Positions 3,990 through 17,754 of a stretch of 64,000 nucleotides of DNA are shown here, piece by piece. Below the pieces are notes generated by a model. That model had not been told where the DNA came from. It did no database searches and saw only the letters and a program-made list of their open reading frames with translations. How positions within the stretch are numbered: position 1 is the first letter of the stretch; every line of letters starts with the position of its first letter. Source of the stretch: an uncultured Actinomycetes bacterium (GTDB lineage Bacteria; Actinomycetota; Thermoleophilia; UBA2241); the NCBI GenBank assembly GCA_963709345.1, contig CAVPVX010000007.1, positions 256,001 to 320,000 of the forward strand. Direction: 5' to 3'. The position numbers were made by a program, and so were the translations under genes.

Positions 3990-5372
3990 CTACGTCACCG
4001 GCGCCGACTCCTCGGTCGCTTCGGGAGCCCGCTCACCGTTCATGCAGCTCCAGATGGGATCGTAGAGGCGCTCGACGTCTGAGGAGTACACGTCGAGCTC
4101 AGCCTGCAGATCGGTGATCATGACGTCGCCGCCGGGATGGGTCGGCCGAGCCCCGGTCGCCGCCATGATCTCGCGTGACTGGTGTGGATTGTCGATCCAC
4201 ATACAGGGCATCAGCAGGTTGTGGTTGAACGGCTGACGACTGCGGATCTCCTGGAAGAACGGCGAGTTGAAAGCATCCAGGAGGCTCACGTCACGGACGT
4301 TGTCGGTGGCGAAGTGCGTGAAGATGCATGGCTCCACCCACCCGTCACTGTTGATGTGCATGTAGTGCCTGCCGGCGATACACCCGCTCACCCAGGGCGC
4401 ATCGCCCCAGAAATCGACGGGGAAGAGCGGCTTGGTGTCGCGGATACGATGGATGGCGAGCCGGAACCCGTTACGCTCCTCCGGCGTCAGCATCATGCTC
4501 AGGTCCGGGTGACGCCCCAAGGGCATGTACAGGAAGTTCCAGCTGAGCATGGCTCCCTTGGCGATCAGCGGATCGACGAACTCGTCGCTCATGATGTGCT
4601 GCCAGTTCTTGCGCATCACAGTGCTTGAATAGCCGAAGAGGACACCGGCCTCGCCCAGCTGATCCATGGTCTCCAGGACCTGGTCGTACACGCCGCGCCC
4701 GCGCCGCTGGTCGGTCATCTCGCGATTGCCCTCCAGGCTCAGCATCGGGGCGATGTTCCCGATCTCGGCGAGCCCGTCGATCATGTCTTGATCGAGGAGC
4801 GTGCCGTTCGTGAAGACCTGGAAGTATGCGTCCTTGTTCTCGCGCGCGAAGTCCAGCAACTCGTCCCACATGAAGGGCTCGCCGCCGAGCATCGTGAAGA
4901 GGTAGACGCCCATGTCGTTGCCCTCGTCCACGATCTTCTGCATCAGCCCGCGATCCAGATCCTGATCGGGCGAGTACTCGGCCGCGTAGCACCCCGCACA
5001 GGTGAGATTGCAGCGCATGGTGGGGCTCATGAGGATCGTCGTCGGGGCGTGCATGCCGGTCGAGTCCACGAGCTCTCTGCGCTTTGCGACGCCGCGAAGC
5101 AATGTATTCACAATAAGACATTCGATGAAGCTGTCGCGGCAACGCGGGCTGAGCTTCGAGGTCACGTGTCTGGCGATGAGCAACGCCGGGTGGTCGTCCT
5201 CGACCTTCTCGGTGACGAAACGCACTGAGCCCTTGTACTGTTCCGGGGTGATCTTCTCCGCAAGCTGGAACGCCTTGACGATCTTCGCTTTGTCGTCGCT
5301 GGCGGCCAGCTTGAGCATCTGGTTGATCGCCTGCCTCTGCACGGCCGTATAGAGGCCGTCCGTACGGCTCAT
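3990..5372 (-). CDS. Radical SAM protein with SPASM/twitch-type C-terminal Cys, function unknown
   Basis: CNLTCAGC (CxxxCxxC), GGEPF, TNGTL, GCIAG..HINSDGWVEPC; RBS gggagggg before ATG 5372. Confidence 0.88.
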   Translation of the reverse strand: MSRTDGLYTAVQRQAINQMLKLAASDDKAKIVKAFQLAEKITPEQYKGSVRFVTEKVEDDHPALLIARHVTSKLSPRCRDSFIECLIVNTLLRGVAKRRELVDSTGMHAPTTILMSPTMRCNLTCAGCYAAEYSPDQDLDRGLMQKIVDEGNDMGVYLFTMLGGEPFMWDELLDFARENKDAYFQVFTNGTLLDQDMIDGLAEIGNIAPMLSLEGNREMTDQRRGRGVYDQVLETMDQLGEAGVLFGYSSTVMRKNWQHIMSDEFVDPLIAKGAMLSWNFLYMPLGRHPDLSMMLTPEERNGFRLAIHRIRDTKPLFPVDFWGDAPWVSGCIAGRHYMHINSDGWVEPCIFTHFATDNVRDVSLLDAFNSPFFQEIRSRQPFNHNLLMPCMWIDNPHQSREIMAATGARPTHPGGDVMITDLQAELDVYSSDVERLYDPIWSCMNGERAPEATEESAPVT

Positions 5373-5885: not shown

Positions 5886-5913
5886 TCACCTTCTGCACGC
5901 CGGCTGCCGATAC
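5886..5913 (+). promoter_or_regulatory. Possible sigma-28 (FliA/WhiG)-type promoter
   Basis: GCCGATAC at 5906-5913 matches the GCCGATAA -10 consensus and sits just before the riboswitch 5' end; -35 match (TCAC) is weak. Confidence 0.4.
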
Positions 5914-5921
5914 CCACCTTG

Positions 5922-6000
5922 AACGACAAAGGCAAACCTGTCGCGAGGCAGGGACGCAAAGCCAGAGGTCTTGGATGATCAAGATAGCTCGGTTGCCGAA
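5922..6000 (+). ncRNA. Cyclic di-GMP-I (GEMM-I) riboswitch
   Basis: AAGGCAAACC-TGTC-GCGA-GGCA-GGGACGCAAAGCC...GGTTGCCGAA reproduces the GEMM-I core with a GNRA loop; G at the position equivalent to G20 suggests c-di-GMP rather than cGAMP. Confidence 0.88.
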
Positions 6001-6138
6001 TCCGAACTCCGCACTCGCGGATCTCGCCTTCAGCATCTCGCGCGAGGCCAGCGTCCTCCTCCCGACCGGAGCGCCGTCCAGCAACGTCCGCCGGCCTTGA
6101 GCAAGTCGGCAGGCCCAAGGAGCACTGGTGTGGAGGCG

Positions 6139-7886
6139 ATGAAGATGAGACCAAGGTATTTCGTTCTCGCCGTAGCGCTGCTCTGCCTCCTGGTCTTGCC
6201 CGGCACGGCACTGGCCAAGGCCAAGAGCGACGACGACAAGATCGACCAGAGCGTCACGACAGTCCTCAAAGCCACGGGCGGTGATGACGCCGTGCCCGTC
6301 GTGGTGTACACGGAGCCCGATGAGGCGACGGTCGTAGCTGCTGCCGTGCCCGACGTCGTCGAGACCACGGAGATCCCGGCCTTCGATGCCGTCGCCGCTT
6401 ACCTGCTGCCCGACGAGATCGACGCGCTCTCCCTTGACGATTCCGTCCTCATGATCGTCGCCGACAACCCAGTCTTCGGCTTCGACTACGCCAGCTCGCT
6501 CGACATCACCAATCTCGCGATCGGGCTGGATGCAGTCGCATCACCGGCCGAGGGCGGCCCGGACGGCAGCGGCGTGGGCGTCGCCGTCATCGACAGTGGC
6601 ATCACGACGACGTCCGACCTGGGCGACAGCCGCATCGTCGGCTGGAAGGACTTCGTCGACAAGAGAAGGCGGCCGTACGACGACGCCGGACACGGGACCT
6701 TCGTGGCCGGCCTCATCGCCGGAGACGGCACCGCCTCGCTCCCGCTCGACCAGGGCGGCTACGCGACGATGCAGTTCCGCGGCGTCGCCCCGGCGGCCAA
6801 CATCATCGGCGTCAAGGTCCTGGACAGCAACGGCAGCGGGTCGCGCATCCGCGGTCATGTCGGCCATCGTCTGGACGGTCGCCCACAGGAACGCCTACAA
6901 CATCCGCGTGATGAACCTGTCGCTCGGGGCCAACCCGGTCGCCCCCGTGGAGTTCGACCCCATCGCGCGGGCCGTGGAGTTCGCCTGGAAGCACGGCGTG
7001 ACGGTCGTCTGCGCCGCCGGCAACGAGGGCGAGTTCGGCCCCGGCGGGATCCTGTCTCCGGGCAACAGCCCCTACGTCCTGACGGTCGGCGCCAGCGATA
7101 CCCGCCAGACGGCAACGCTCGACGACGACGCCGTCACCTACTACAGCTCGGTCGGGCCGACGCTCTTCGACGAGTTCGCCAAGCCCGACGTCGTGGCGCC
7201 GGGTAACCGGCTCATCTCGACGAGGGTGCCGGGCTCGTACATCGACGTCAACTACCCGCAGAACCTGATCCCGGTGGGAAGCTACGCGCCCACGGCGCCG
7301 GCAGACACTGAAGCCGAGCTATCTGATGCTGTCCGGCACCAGCACGTCCGCGCCGGTCACAGCCGGCGCAGCGGCGCTGATGCTCGGCGCCGACCCAAGC
7401 CTGACCCCCGACGACGTCAAGCTGCGCCTCATGGCCACGGCCGACCCCCTGCCCGGAGCGACCCGCCACCAGCAAGGCGCAGGCCTGATCGACGTCGACG
7501 AGGCTCTGGCCGACACCTCGAGGTCCGAAGGGTATGCTCTCTCTGAAGACCTCGGTGACGGCACGACGATACTCAGCAAGAACGTCTATGCCGCCTGGGA
7601 CACGACGGCATGGAAGAAGTACGGATGGACGAAGTTCCGCTGGACGAAGTTCCGCTGGACGAAGTTCCGCTGGGTGAAGTTCCGCTGGACGGACACCGAA
7701 GTGGAAGCGACGAAGTTCCGGTGGGTGAAGTTCCGCTGGACGGACGTGGGAGCGACGAAGTTCCGCTGGACAGACGTGGGATGGACCAAGTTCCGGTGGA
7801 CGTCCGACTACCAGGCGACCAAGTTCCGGTGGACGGAGTACGACTGGACCAAGTTCAGATGGACGATCCTCATCGAAGGACAGTGA
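6139..7886 (+). CDS. Secreted S8 subtilisin-like serine protease with C-terminal KFRW repeats; two +1 frameshifts (~6840, ~7311)
   Basis: Signal peptide MKMRPRYFVLAVALLCLLVLPGTALA; VAVIDSG and HGTFVAG in frame 1, AAGNEG and KPDVVAPG in frame 2, SGTSTSAP in frame 3; removing one base at each junction gives a continuous 581-aa protein. Confidence 0.85.
7626..7862 (+). repeat. Ten coding repeats of [T/V]KFRW (15-bp core acgaagttccgctgg)
   Basis: Directly visible tandem and spaced repeats with synonymous variation. Confidence 0.95.
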
Positions 7887-9415
7887 CCCTGGACTCAGCT
7901 GAAGTCATCGACGGTAACGAGACGGCCGTGCGGAAACGCACGGCCGTCTCGCTCTACGTGGGCCTCGTCTGCCTCGCGGCCGCAGCCGTCTCAGCGGCAG
8001 CCGGCTTGAGCGAGCCCGCGCCGTTCACGCTCAACATCGTGGCGTTCATGATCCTCGCCACGCTCACCGACCTCCGAGAGATCAAGCTGCCGCTGGTCGG
8101 CGATGTGACTCTGTCGTTCGTGCCGGTGCTCGCCGCCCTCGTCGCCCTCGGGCTGTGGCCGGCGATGGCGGTCGCGGCCGTCAGCGGCGTGACCGCCGCC
8201 TGGGTGACGCGCGACCCGCTCAAGATCGCCTTCAACATCGGGAACTACGTGATCTCCACCTATCTGGCCGGCCTCCTGTATCTGGCGTTGGCGCCCGAAG
8301 GCGGCGACTTCATGACCAAGGTCCTCCCCACCTTCGGAGCGACGATCGTGGACTTCGCCGTCCACACGGCGCTCCTCGCCGGCGTGATCGCCCTCTCGAC
8401 GCAGGACCACGCCGTCAAGGTGTGGCGCACCAACTACCAGTGGGCGCTGCCGGGGTATCTCGCCGGCTCGACGCTGGCCCTGCTCGTAGCGGCCCTCTAT
8501 CTCTGGCTCGGGGTGCCGGGGATGCTGCTCGGGATCCCGCCGCTCTATCTCATCTACTACTCGTACGACATCTACGTGAAACGGGCCCGGGAGCGCCAGA
8601 CATTCGACGCCGAGCGAGACGACTTCCACGAGGAGCTCGCCGCTTCGGTGCACCTGCACGACGAGCTGCGCACGACGCAGCTGAAGGTGGCCGCCGAGAT
8701 CGAGCGCGCCCGCCGTATCCAGACCGACCTCCTCCCCACCGGCACGCCCGACATCGAAGGCCTGGAACTCGACCAACGGATCGAGTTCCTCGGCGAGATG
8801 GGGGGCGACTACTACGACTACATCCCCTTCGGCGACGGCCGTCTCGCGATCGTGTGCGGCGACGTCATGGGCAAGGGCCTCGCCGCCGCCCTGATCATGG
8901 CCATGGCGCGCTCGCTGCTGCACAACGCAATTGCTCCCGACAAGAGCCCGGGCGAGATCATGGCCGAGGTGAACGACGGCCTTGCACGCGACCTCGAGGG
9001 CCAGCGCCTGCCGTACTTCCTGACGCTGGCCATCGCGGCGTACGACCCCGCCGGCCACAGCCTCGTGGTCGCCGGCGGGGGGCACAACCCGGTCCTGATC
9101 GCCGACGCCGACGGGATCCGACAGGTGCCGTCTCAGGGGGCCGCCCTCGGCGTGCGCACGGGACTCAGCTACCCTGAGGACGACATCGCCCTCGGCACGG
9201 GAGCCACGGTCGCCCTGTACACCGACGGACTGACCGAGGCGCGCAATGCCGCCGGCGAACTGTACGGCCCGGAGCGGCTCGAGGCGTCGCTCGAACGGTG
9301 TCGGACGCGGCCCGTTCGTGACACACTTGAAGACATGTGGAGCGACGTCGCCGCGTTCCGCGGCGAGAGGGTAGCAACGGACGACGCGACGCTCCTGCTC
9401 GCGCGCTTCGTTTGA
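7883..9415 (+). CDS. Membrane-sensor PP2C/SpoIIE (RsbU-like) Ser/Thr phosphatase
   Basis: About 7 N-terminal TM helices with KIAFN motif (MASE9-like), coiled coil, then ARRIQ..LLP, GGDYYD, GDVMGKG, YTDGL, DDAT; GTG overlaps the protease stop (GTGA). Confidence 0.9.
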   Translation: MTLDSAEVIDGNETAVRKRTAVSLYVGLVCLAAAAVSAAAGLSEPAPFTLNIVAFMILATLTDLREIKLPLVGDVTLSFVPVLAALVALGLWPAMAVAAVSGVTAAWVTRDPLKIAFNIGNYVISTYLAGLLYLALAPEGGDFMTKVLPTFGATIVDFAVHTALLAGVIALSTQDHAVKVWRTNYQWALPGYLAGSTLALLVAALYLWLGVPGMLLGIPPLYLIYYSYDIYVKRARERQTFDAERDDFHEELAASVHLHDELRTTQLKVAAEIERARRIQTDLLPTGTPDIEGLELDQRIEFLGEMGGDYYDYIPFGDGRLAIVCGDVMGKGLAAALIMAMARSLLHNAIAPDKSPGEIMAEVNDGLARDLEGQRLPYFLTLAIAAYDPAGHSLVVAGGGHNPVLIADADGIRQVPSQGAALGVRTGLSYPEDDIALGTGATVALYTDGLTEARNAAGELYGPERLEASLERCRTRPVRDTLEDMWSDVAAFRGERVATDDATLLLARFV

Positions 9416-9458
9416 GGCGGCGGGACCGCTGAGCACCGAACGACAGGGGTCGCGGCAG

Positions 9459-10232
9459 ATGCCCGACACGACGGCCGGCATGCCGGCCTCTCTTCAGGTC
9501 TACCGGTACAGAGCCGGCGCCGCGCGCGTCGAGGCCGTGGTCGGCGAGATGGAGCCGGATCTCCCCCACGAAGACCTTGTCGCGCATGCCACGGAGGCGA
9601 TGACGCAGGGCACCTTCATGTGCTACGCCGTACCGCAGAGAGACGATTTCGTCGCCGACGAGATCTGCTTCATCCCCCAGGGCGACCGCTGCGACATCCT
9701 CAGCATCAAGACCAACGGCTGGCAGCGCCACCACGGCGATCACCGTCGAAGCCTCGTGGAGATCCTCAACAACATGGCCGCGGCCGTCGCCTGCGGCAAG
9801 CTCCGCATACTCGACGAAGACGAGCTCCGCGTCGAAGTGGAGCGGGGGGAGCCGGCGCTCCACTTCGACATCGACAGAACGGCCGACCTCCAGACGGCCC
9901 GGGAGGCCGTCGACGCGCTGCTGCAGGAGGCGGGTCTCGACGACATCAACCGGCAGCGCACGATCCTCTGCATCTCAGAGGCCGTGACCAACATGCTGCT
10001 GCACGGCGGCGGTCACGGCTCCATGACACTACGCACGCTCGACGACCGCCTCCGGATAGTGGTGGCCGACTCGGGTCCCGGCCTCAACTTCCTGAACTGG
10101 ATCGACCCGCCCTCCAAAGGCGGTCAGGCGTCGATGGGCTACGGCTACAAGATCATCCTCGACTACCTCGACGCCGTCGGCCTGCGCACGACCCCGGTGG
10201 GAACTACGTTACTATTGGACCGCACGATCTAA
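9459..10232 (+). CDS. RsbW-like anti-sigma factor/Ser kinase (HATPase_c_2) with extra N-terminal domain
   Basis: ISEAVTNMLLHG (N box), VADSGPG (G1), MGYGYKII (G2). Confidence 0.8.
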   Translation: MPDTTAGMPASLQVYRYRAGAARVEAVVGEMEPDLPHEDLVAHATEAMTQGTFMCYAVPQRDDFVADEICFIPQGDRCDILSIKTNGWQRHHGDHRRSLVEILNNMAAAVACGKLRILDEDELRVEVERGEPALHFDIDRTADLQTAREAVDALLQEAGLDDINRQRTILCISEAVTNMLLHGGGHGSMTLRTLDDRLRIVVADSGPGLNFLNWIDPPSKGGQASMGYGYKIILDYLDAVGLRTTPVGTTLLLDRTI

Positions 10233-10249
10233 CCGAAGCGGGAGATCAC

Positions 10250-10561
10250 ATGCTGCGCACATCCGTCGCCCAAGGCCCGGCGCCCACCGTCTACCTCGCC
10301 GGCGAGATGGACCTCGACTGCGCCGACGCGCTGCGTGAGGCCGTCGCCGACGCCGCGAAGGGCGCCGAGGTGGTGGCTCTCGACTTCGCGAGCGTGGAGT
10401 TCATCGACTCCTCGGGCACGGGGATCTTCGTGCGTCTGTGCCTCGACCTCAAGAGCCAAGGCACGCCGCTTGTGGCACGCAACCTCTCGCCGGCCGTGCG
10501 CGGCGTGTTCGACATGCTGCGCGTGCGCGAGCTCGTGGGCGACGAGGTCTTCCCCGGCTGA
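10250..10561 (+). CDS. STAS-domain anti-anti-sigma factor (RsbV-like)
   Basis: LAGEMD..LDFASVEFIDSSG phospho-Ser motif; 103 aa; RBS ggag. Confidence 0.9.
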   Translation: MLRTSVAQGPAPTVYLAGEMDLDCADALREAVADAAKGAEVVALDFASVEFIDSSGTGIFVRLCLDLKSQGTPLVARNLSPAVRGVFDMLRVRELVGDEVFPG

Positions 10562-10582: not shown

Positions 10583-10879
10583 TCAGACGCGCTGCAGGGG
10601 CCCCACCCCGGCCAGCAGCACCACGGTCGCCGCGTCGACGCAGTCGCTGACACTGGCGACGCACGCGTCCCCGCTCAGGCGGTCTCCGTCACGAGTCACC
10701 ATCGTGAACGCCATCGACGACCCGGCCGCAAGATGCTCACGGAACTCATCCGGATCTGACGGGGATTCGATTCGCAAGCACCACGACGCCATCGTGCTCC
10801 CCTCACTCTGCAGGCGCGCACGGAAGAAGCCGAGTTCGCGGCGGTCGTGACTGACTCTGAGCAGTCGCCGCGCGTCCAT
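10583..10879 (-). CDS. Hypothetical protein (98 aa)
   Basis: ATG ORF filling the gap downstream of the 10906-11361 gene; no recognised motif. Confidence 0.45.
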   Translation of the reverse strand: MDARRLLRVSHDRRELGFFRARLQSEGSTMASWCLRIESPSDPDEFREHLAAGSSMAFTMVTRDGDRLSGDACVASVSDCVDAATVVLLAGVGPLQRV

Positions 10880-17678: not shown

Positions 17679-17754
17679 TGGTGGCGAGGGTCAGAATTGA
17701 ACTGACGACACCACGATTTTCAGTCGTGTGCTCTACCAACTGAGCTACCTCGCC
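17679..17754 (-). tRNA. tRNA-Phe (GAA)
   Basis: GGCGAGGTAGCTCAGTTGGTAGAGCACACGACTGAAAATCGTGGTGTCGTCAGTTCAATTCTGACCCTCGCCACCA; 76-nt cloverleaf with encoded CCA. Confidence 0.97.

Follow-up and report, generated by a model that had tools for sequence, protein, structure and literature searches.

A tryptophan-periodic protease tail and its adjacent MASE9 phosphatase as a candidate peptide–receptor pair in uncultured Thermoleophilia

Within a 64,000-nucleotide stretch of a Thermoleophilia metagenome-assembled genome (GenBank GCA_963709345.1, contig CAVPVX010000007.1, positions 256,001 to 320,000 of the forward strand; hereafter the window), we analysed a plus-strand operon in which a cyclic di-GMP-I (c-di-GMP-I) riboswitch is followed by genes for a secreted S8 protease, a membrane sensor joining a MASE9 domain to a PP2C phosphatase, an RsbW-like kinase and a STAS protein. 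Comparison of homologous loci suggests that the peptide repeated in the protease tail and the sensor domain encoded next to it form a cognate pair whose alleles sort into specificity groups, as would suit signalling of kin or quorum. By one route or another, the tail unit is probably the ligand of MASE9. The original prediction, made from the sequence of the window, had described a riboswitch, an S8 protease with ten KFRW repeats, a PP2C sensor coupled to it through a GTGA overlap, an RsbW-like kinase and a STAS protein, and this anatomy was borne out.

The protease is laid out as a signal peptide, a prodomain, a catalytic domain, a linker and a Trp-periodic tail. In the window the tail contains exactly ten KFRW units (Lys codons 7632-7851), eight followed by Thr and two by Val, and the copies differ from one another at synonymous codon positions. 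Across the family, tails carry 4-14 copies of a pentapeptide K/R-F/Y-x-W-T/S/A, which in the window takes the form KFRWT. The residue after Trp agrees with the locus type in 289/289 units preceding a spacer, while the residue before Lys does so in only 172/289, and the ends of the unit were therefore set as K-F-R-W-T. A conserved EGQ-stop end was tried as a peptide motif and rejected, as it encodes the ribosome site and start of the next gene. A single-unit tail at locus L275 may be an assembly collapse and was not used.

To describe how tail and sensor vary, 141 family loci were examined and 87 kept, each with the C-terminal half of the protease, MASE9 and PP2C nearly full, a tail that could be detected and a MASE9 sequence not shared with another locus. 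Their tails fall into ten four-letter motifs, or 15 when the residue after Trp is included. The closest relative of the window (L012/L019, genome G004) carries the motif KFKWS and shares 89% identity with it over the protease core and 90% over PP2C, yet no more than 59% over MASE9, whereas a more distant congener with KFRWT has a MASE9 domain 89% identical to that of the window. In 333 close pairs, the difference in identity between same-motif and different-motif pairs formed a plateau of 0.18-0.30 over residues 1-240 of the sensor and fell to about 0 on either side, both in the protease core and from sensor residue 241 onward. The motif of the nearest neighbour matched in 78/84 cases when neighbours were defined by MASE9, compared with 56/84 for the locus's own protease core and 56/84 for PP2C. 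By parsimony, the 15 motif states required 16 changes on the MASE9 tree (the minimum being 14), 24 on the S8 tree and 26 on the PP2C tree. Approximately unbiased (AU) tests rejected the grouping of KFRWT loci as a clade both on S8 (p 0.00095) and on PP2C (p 2e-28), and on MASE9 rejected the window and its closest relative as sisters (p 3e-91); these tests used 34 of the 87 rows, hand-chosen to cover genus-level types, with groups named after inspection of the motif distribution, and within this subset the MASE9 clade has unstarred support. Five of 15 groups defined by their flanks hold more than one motif. MASE9 identity was 0.88-1.00 in 28 same-motif pairs and at most 0.84 in 17 different-motif pairs. 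Recombination or long-lived balanced alleles would both yield this pattern; exchanged or kept as one cassette, tail and MASE9 would leave close relatives using different peptides.

The association extends to single residues. Phe or Tyr in the tail tracks Ala or Gly at sensor residue 188 in 87/87 loci and Gly or Ser at residue 191 in 86/87. On a tree built without columns 188 and 191 the Phe/Tyr trait changes five times, so the switch recurs inside different MASE9 clades, and none of 1500 simulated five-change traits reached a perfect column. Chemically, it would make sense for the Tyr hydroxyl to meet a smaller residue and a hydroxyl donor. At residue 74, His was found in 19/19 loci with Ser or Ala after Trp and in 0/68 others, and Asp occurs only with tails having Arg plus Thr (27 loci). 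When further tails were read blind afterwards, five of six matched the prediction.

Such a match might arise from physical linkage only, the tail being a structural repeat such as a surface anchor or a set of stacked strands. The strict five-residue Trp register and a Pentapeptide_4 match to the tail, weak and under the cut-off (E 0.015), are in keeping with this, as is the adjacency of tail and MASE9, which one recombination tract would carry together. However, the protease core is equally close to the tail yet lacks the association, and residue 188, some 550 bases from the tail, switches with Phe/Tyr inside different MASE9 clades. No fold was predicted for the tail of a homologue (predicted local distance difference test, pLDDT, about 25, from a shallow alignment), but a predicted unfolded tail is weak evidence because the protease model is poor overall (pLDDT 56). 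We regard a purely structural tail as very improbable.

How a peptide might be read depends on the sensor. Its MASE9 domain (PF20972; Pfam score above the cut-off, eight membrane helices and short outer loops) occupies residues ~19-240 and is followed by a linker and a PP2C/SpoIIE domain with metal-binding Asp motifs. The predicted MASE9 model (pLDDT 87) aligned with 4m5c (Z 14.0, root-mean-square deviation (rmsd) 3.6, 188 residues aligned) and with RibU (Z 13.4, rmsd 3.3, 158 aligned; Foldseek E 9.6e-4). The top 15 rows of the structure search (Z 14.0-9.1) are S-components belonging to transporters of the energy-coupling factor (ECF) type or transition-metal transporter subunits of that kind, and ECF S-components fill the top ranks in two structure searches; the comparison is of a predicted model, and chance alone can bring helical bundles to Z near 13, yet it is the S-component family that fills the top ranks. 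MASE9 is thus modelled as an ECF S-component fold, with a six-helix core and one extra helix at each end.

In S-components the pocket is formed by helices H4-H6 beneath loop L1, and in MASE9 residues 74, 161, 188 and 191 map to L1, to H5 and to the beginning of H6. Residue 161 (window 8363-8365) is Asn in 144/150 diverse MASE9 domains and His in all 25 KFRWT receptors. Counts of Lys plus Arg per segment are 2.4 at the N-terminus, 2.0 in L1, 1.95 in L3, 2.1 in L5 and 3.4 at the C-terminus, against 0.4, 0, 0.75 and 0 in the alternate loops, and the same charge bias is found in 141 distant MASE9 domains. As this bias puts the N-terminus, L1, L3, L5 and the C-terminus on the phosphatase side, the co-varying face of MASE9 is probably cytoplasmic, and the domain is apparently inverted relative to S-components. 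The original prediction had the sensor detecting the protease's own Trp-rich peptides: the co-variation supports a cognate tail and sensor, but simple sensing from outside is not favoured, because the loop charges place the pocket face in the cytoplasm.

A released peptide could nonetheless bind MASE9 from the outer side or by way of the membrane interface, should the inversion be mistaken or the pocket have a lateral opening. The partitioning of cationic Trp-rich peptides into membranes would suit this route. S-components and 5TMR receptors bind at their outer face, according to a study of these receptors (PMC11109136), and the accessible text of the MASE9 preprint (bioRxiv 10.1101/2021.11.05.467447, Galperin and Chou) describes short periplasmic segments, names no ligand there and places ligand binding within the membrane. 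The Lys and Arg bias, repeated in 141 distant domains, argues in the other direction, as does the extra last helix, which connects to a cytoplasmic enzyme, and we judge binding from outside unlikely. The charge bias is also indirect evidence that MASE9, with the N-terminus, L1, L3 and L5 inside, departs from the 5TMR-type layout, in which the first helix is N-out, the pocket loops face outward and the sixth core helix continues into the cytoplasmic domain.

Taken together, we propose a mechanism in which the operon, headed by its riboswitch, encodes a secreted subtilase with a tail that, as its sequence reads, carries 4-14 pentapeptide copies. The protease would cut its own tail into free pentapeptides; these would re-enter cells via an Opp-type importer, which is the weakest step; the peptides would then bind their cognate MASE9 at the cytoplasm-facing pocket, a step to which the co-variation strongly points; and binding would switch the fused PP2C, which by analogy with its family would oppose the RsbW-like kinase at the STAS serine. 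We hold this reading, in which the tail releases a pentapeptide signal with specificity groups that cells then take back up, tentatively and at a little short of even confidence. The host genome has 13 SBP_bac_5 matches, none beside the operon. Other PP2C or STAS genes of that genome have SBP_bac_5 genes within about 3-11 kb (C4:14295-20035, C7:561549-574289, C11:186712-190594).

Alternatively, the unit might be read while still attached to the protease, from the cytoplasm and either ahead of export or in the course of it, so that the sensor would monitor the cell's own secretion or protease expression instead of a social signal. This account would produce the same co-variation of tail and sensor, and it accords with a pocket face that looks cytoplasmic, with the tail being the last part of the protein to pass through Sec and with the translational coupling of the two genes; leaderless Trp peptides before other MASE9 genes (an STTWS type at nine loci and a V(K/R)W(G/S) type at four) are also in its favour. 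However, the wealth of alleles that close relatives show at a single locus is more in line with selection between strains, and each genome checked needs only one matched pair. We think it unlikely. A further possibility is that the tail is a toxic or membrane-active cationic Trp-rich peptide and MASE9 a sensor for self-recognition or immunity, in the manner of polymorphic toxins. The toxin–immunity layout does indeed join a conserved carrier, whose C-terminal tip varies, to a neighbouring gene that varies too, and KFRW units are cationic and aromatic; but many alleles are low in charge (KYAW, KFAW), distant S8 tails are neutral or acidic (e.g. IIVWG, ALWGD), and MASE9 is fused to signalling enzymes throughout its family, leaving a toxin very improbable.

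Several observations weigh against a released and re-imported signal. The protease gene of the window is broken as assembled; no importer was recognised among the conserved neighbours (14 largest flank clusters); charge bias is the sole evidence for the topology of MASE9; and the Trp spacing of five persists through the spacers (970/1042 gaps), which could mean a structural register. As for the residue code, its columns were picked after scanning about 490 positions against eight traits. Only three independent Phe/Tyr pairs fall on starred branches, for which a sign test gives p 0.25; His74 shows two changes and Asp74 one, and the held-out loci, 23/23 of which fit for residue 188 and His74, are kin of the training set. 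Two loci depart from the code: L187 has a KVRWT tail yet G188/S191, and L211 pairs KYRWT with Val74.

With regard to the broken gene, the protein is recognisable as a subtilase by an Asp-His-Ser triad and oxyanion Asn within the PF00082 domain. All three catalytic motifs are present in 110 of the 120 listed S8 homologues, and whole homologues are common; frameshifts shared by all strains, which the original prediction had counted as fatal to it, can thus be set aside. A count of how many protease parts share one frame was discarded as a test of the frameshifts, since these parts had been delimited by the breaks of the window itself. The assembly is prone to error: among same-assembly orthologues of the closest relative's genes, 16/139 are split, with 17 shifts in 54,656 residues, and five of the 17 sit in four adjacent genes, so errors cluster. 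Two shifts in one gene would be uncommon at the assembly rate (about 1-2% by Poisson arithmetic). A 263-base contig from another sample covers the second break site with one substitution and one gap, the place of the gap not being shown. Both frameshifts are probably assembly errors; a true signal-null allele is possible.

To place the operon in a wider context, MASE9 genes were surveyed in other genomes. The domain was present in 131/301 Actinomycetota and in 23/151 genomes of a second phylum, a tally that includes two unpublished genomes (G123 and G152), which enter into no other result. Upstream regions were surveyed for the best 110 of about 209 MASE9 matches in the Actinomycetota draw, 103 of which had enough upstream DNA. 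In 55/103, a basic, hydrophobic open reading frame (ORF) of 17-40 amino acids (aa) lies within 650 bases upstream, and 43 of these mini-genes are aromatic-ended; by the same filter, whose matches include some that are clearly spurious, the host-genome background was 34/545 genes, with 11/545 aromatic-ended. Gly-Ala-like residues precede a short end, mostly of 4-5 residues, in 38/55 mini-genes. The reverse-strand control gave 13/103 and is not clean, as real-looking divergent peptide genes occur at some of those loci. A tailed S8 gene lies upstream in 7/103 actinobacterial loci, and none of the 103 has both an S8 gene and a mini-gene, an exclusion that is partly geometric and was not used. Among 30 MASE9 matches in the phylum of an acidobacterial genome, 12 have an upstream S8 gene, and the mini-gene filter retains not one of the 30. 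All 19 S8 proteins upstream of MASE9 have Trp-periodic tails, and the S8-linked MASE9 domains sit in two parts of a tree of weak resolution. When the remaining actinobacterial loci were inspected with looser criteria and no control, Trp peptides, both divergent and leaderless, turned up at many of them.

These peptides take several forms. A divergent gene for a signal-like peptide with a Gly-Ala/Trp-containing end is present at L036, L037, L085, L117, L143 and L145. Leaderless peptides of 36-39 aa containing STTWS twice precede MASE9 kinases at L045, L048, L052, L094, L100, L101, L109, L115 and L141, and leaderless peptides of 10 aa ending V(K/R)W(G/S) do so at L133, L147, L148 and L164. The mini-gene stands in two or three tandem copies at L033, L035, L042, L044, L111, L112, L135 and L142, which may be another way to multiply peptide dose. 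The host's second MASE9 gene, with an HD-GYP output, lies outside the window (C7:708557-706879, minus strand); before it are a leaderless ORF of 24 aa with three GGKMH units and a signal-like ORF of 26 aa ending KMH. P0141, which is without a Pfam match, and about 15 similar proteins of ~460 aa have two MASE9-like stretches. No MASE9 relative was found in the plasmid collection.

MASE9 domains might accordingly be widespread membrane peptide receptors built on an upside-down vitamin-transporter fold, whose ligands are pentapeptides ending in Trp and encoded by neighbouring DNA as multi-copy subtilase tails, as signal-like mini-genes or as leaderless ones, with phosphatases, kinases and c-di-GMP enzymes as outputs and, in this family, with swappable kin-recognition groups whose code is partly readable from residues 74, 188 and 191; for so broad a statement our confidence is limited, and we put it forward as plausible but doubtful. 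MASE9 is an orphan sensor, and the co-variation points to a candidate ligand class and yields residue-level predictions. The family includes Streptomyces HdgA, for which the tests reported were considered to have lacked the activating signals (PMC6205966).

The nearest known systems differ in instructive ways. In the staphylococcal agr system, the peptidase AgrB, the thiolactone peptide AgrD and the histidine kinase AgrC work together. The operon described here resembles agr in holding a processing enzyme, a peptide and a membrane receptor, and in a variable cassette that extends from the enzyme gene's end across the sensor domain and defines specificity groups. Unlike agr, its unit is Cys-free, linear, present in many copies and part of the protease's own tail, and its components are a subtilase, MASE9 and a PP2C partner switch. 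With RRNPP systems (Rap-Phr, PlcR-PapR, Rgg-SHP, ComR-XIP) it shares a short linear peptide with an exported precursor and the import and intracellular sensing proposed here, and the mini-genes before other MASE9 genes resemble RRNPP precursors in shape; in contrast to RRNPP, the receptor is an integral membrane protein without a tetratricopeptide repeat match and the precursor a protease of ~580 aa. The system is thus agr-like in its cassette and RRNPP-like in its short linear peptide, and it lacks the defining features of both. 5TMR receptors (PMC11109136, Partipilo and Slotboom) likewise have a six-helix S-component core, an extra first helix and fusions to signalling domains including SpoIIE, whereas MASE9 has an extra last helix, seems to be the other way up and has a gene-encoded peptide as its proposed ligand. 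That article describes the S-component fold in 5TMR receptors, and "MASE" occurs 0 times in its available text; similarly, "peptidase" and "protease" occur 0 times in the accessible text of the MASE9 preprint (bioRxiv 10.1101/2021.11.05.467447), and that text lists no PP2C fusion, although Figure S5 of the preprint may give further architectures. We found no description of this peptide–receptor system in the literature searched, outside which lay most subscription journals and bioRxiv supplements. If true, our proposal would describe bacterial peptide signalling with many strain-specific "dialects", and would add an architecture beside agr and RRNPP in lineages for which we found no such system described.

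For the riboswitch, the best aptamer model is the GGC variant, the window reading CGCAAAG where the consensus is CGCGAAg; the A in place of G is what we take to be the canonical letter. The riboswitch is assigned to the c-di-GMP-I class by covariance score, and c-di-GMP binding and switching are predicted. A riboswitch match was found in 84/92 family loci having enough upstream DNA. The leader showed no terminator or promoter match and folded no better than shuffled sequences (z -0.42). The GTG start of the sensor overlaps the protease stop (GTGA), with GAAGGA directly upstream. Downstream, the Rsb-type module comprises a PP2C domain bearing metal-binding Asp motifs, an HATPase_c_2 kinase and a STAS protein with its conserved Ser, and STAS lies 3′ of the kinase in 104/104 loci with room, always with F[IV]DSSG. 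It resembles RsbU/RsbV/RsbW and SiaABC-type switches in these conserved parts, including the DSSG serine, and differs in the extra N-terminal domain of its kinase, which had no Atlas match, in NCBIfam scores that are all far under their cut-offs and in having no sigma factor recognised nearby. In line with the original prediction, no sigma factor gene was recognised in the operon, nor in any of the 14 largest flank clusters; that a sigma factor is the output, acting in trans, is a guess. The host genome has further STAS and HATPase_c_2 genes.

Gene order had been expected to be conserved, and it is identical in 22/24 congeners. Together with STAS 3′ of RsbW in every locus with room and the recurrent riboswitch, this makes a chance arrangement untenable. 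The system is real and conserved, and the comparative evidence for a candidate peptide–receptor pair is good. Long DNA matches to the operon were found in 22/24 congeners and in 0/16 genomes of other families in the class, and the named relatives are uncultured Thermoleophilia. A sensor orthologue is present in 71/89 family genomes, and in 29/32 of the high-quality ones. Two near-complete congeners of 1.7-1.8 Mb (G497 and G498) gave no sensor match at the cut-off used. None of the sequencing runs listed contains half of the stretch, and no RNA dataset is among the holders. Table 1 gives the positions of all features.

Table 1. Features of the operon and its surroundings, in positions of the window
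Feature	Position	Strand	Detail
Radical SAM/SPASM gene	3990-5372	-	Divergent from the riboswitch; kept at 40 loci
c-di-GMP-I clan aptamer	5922-6001	+	Rfam 73.4 bits (cut-off 59)
S8 (AprX-like) subtilase	6139 (ATG)-7886 (TGA)	+	Three frames, every piece matching Peptidase_S8 (PF00082) in order
Putative Sec-type signal peptide	~6139-6216	+	By inspection
Catalytic motifs of the S8 gene	IDSG 6589, HGT 6691, AGNEG 7016, GTSTS 7335	+	
Two single extra bases	near 6838-6840; near 7311	+	Each one base extra compared with two relatives
Variable cassette (linker, tail, MASE9)	7501-8550	+	DNA identity to closest relative 0.50-0.68, against 0.80-0.97 on either side
Trp-periodic tail	7596-7886	+	Trp every fifth residue, ten K-F-R-W units, acidic spacers
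MASE9-PP2C sensor	7883 (GTG)-9415	+	MASE9 26.7 bits (cut-off 24.3), SpoIIE 158.7 bits
RsbW-like Ser kinase	9459-10232	+	HATPase_c_2; N, G1 and G2 boxes; N-terminal domain of ~135 aa without assignment
STAS (RsbV-like) protein	10250-10561	+	F[IV]DSSG phosphoacceptor motif
98 aa ORF	10583-10879	-	Convergent on the operon; kept at 22 loci
tRNA gene	17682-17754	-	

The 98 aa ORF is without a Pfam or NCBIfam match. The genomic position of the operon is stable, the divergent radical SAM gene, which might have a part in modifying the Trp/Lys peptides, clustering at 40 loci and the convergent small ORF at 22.

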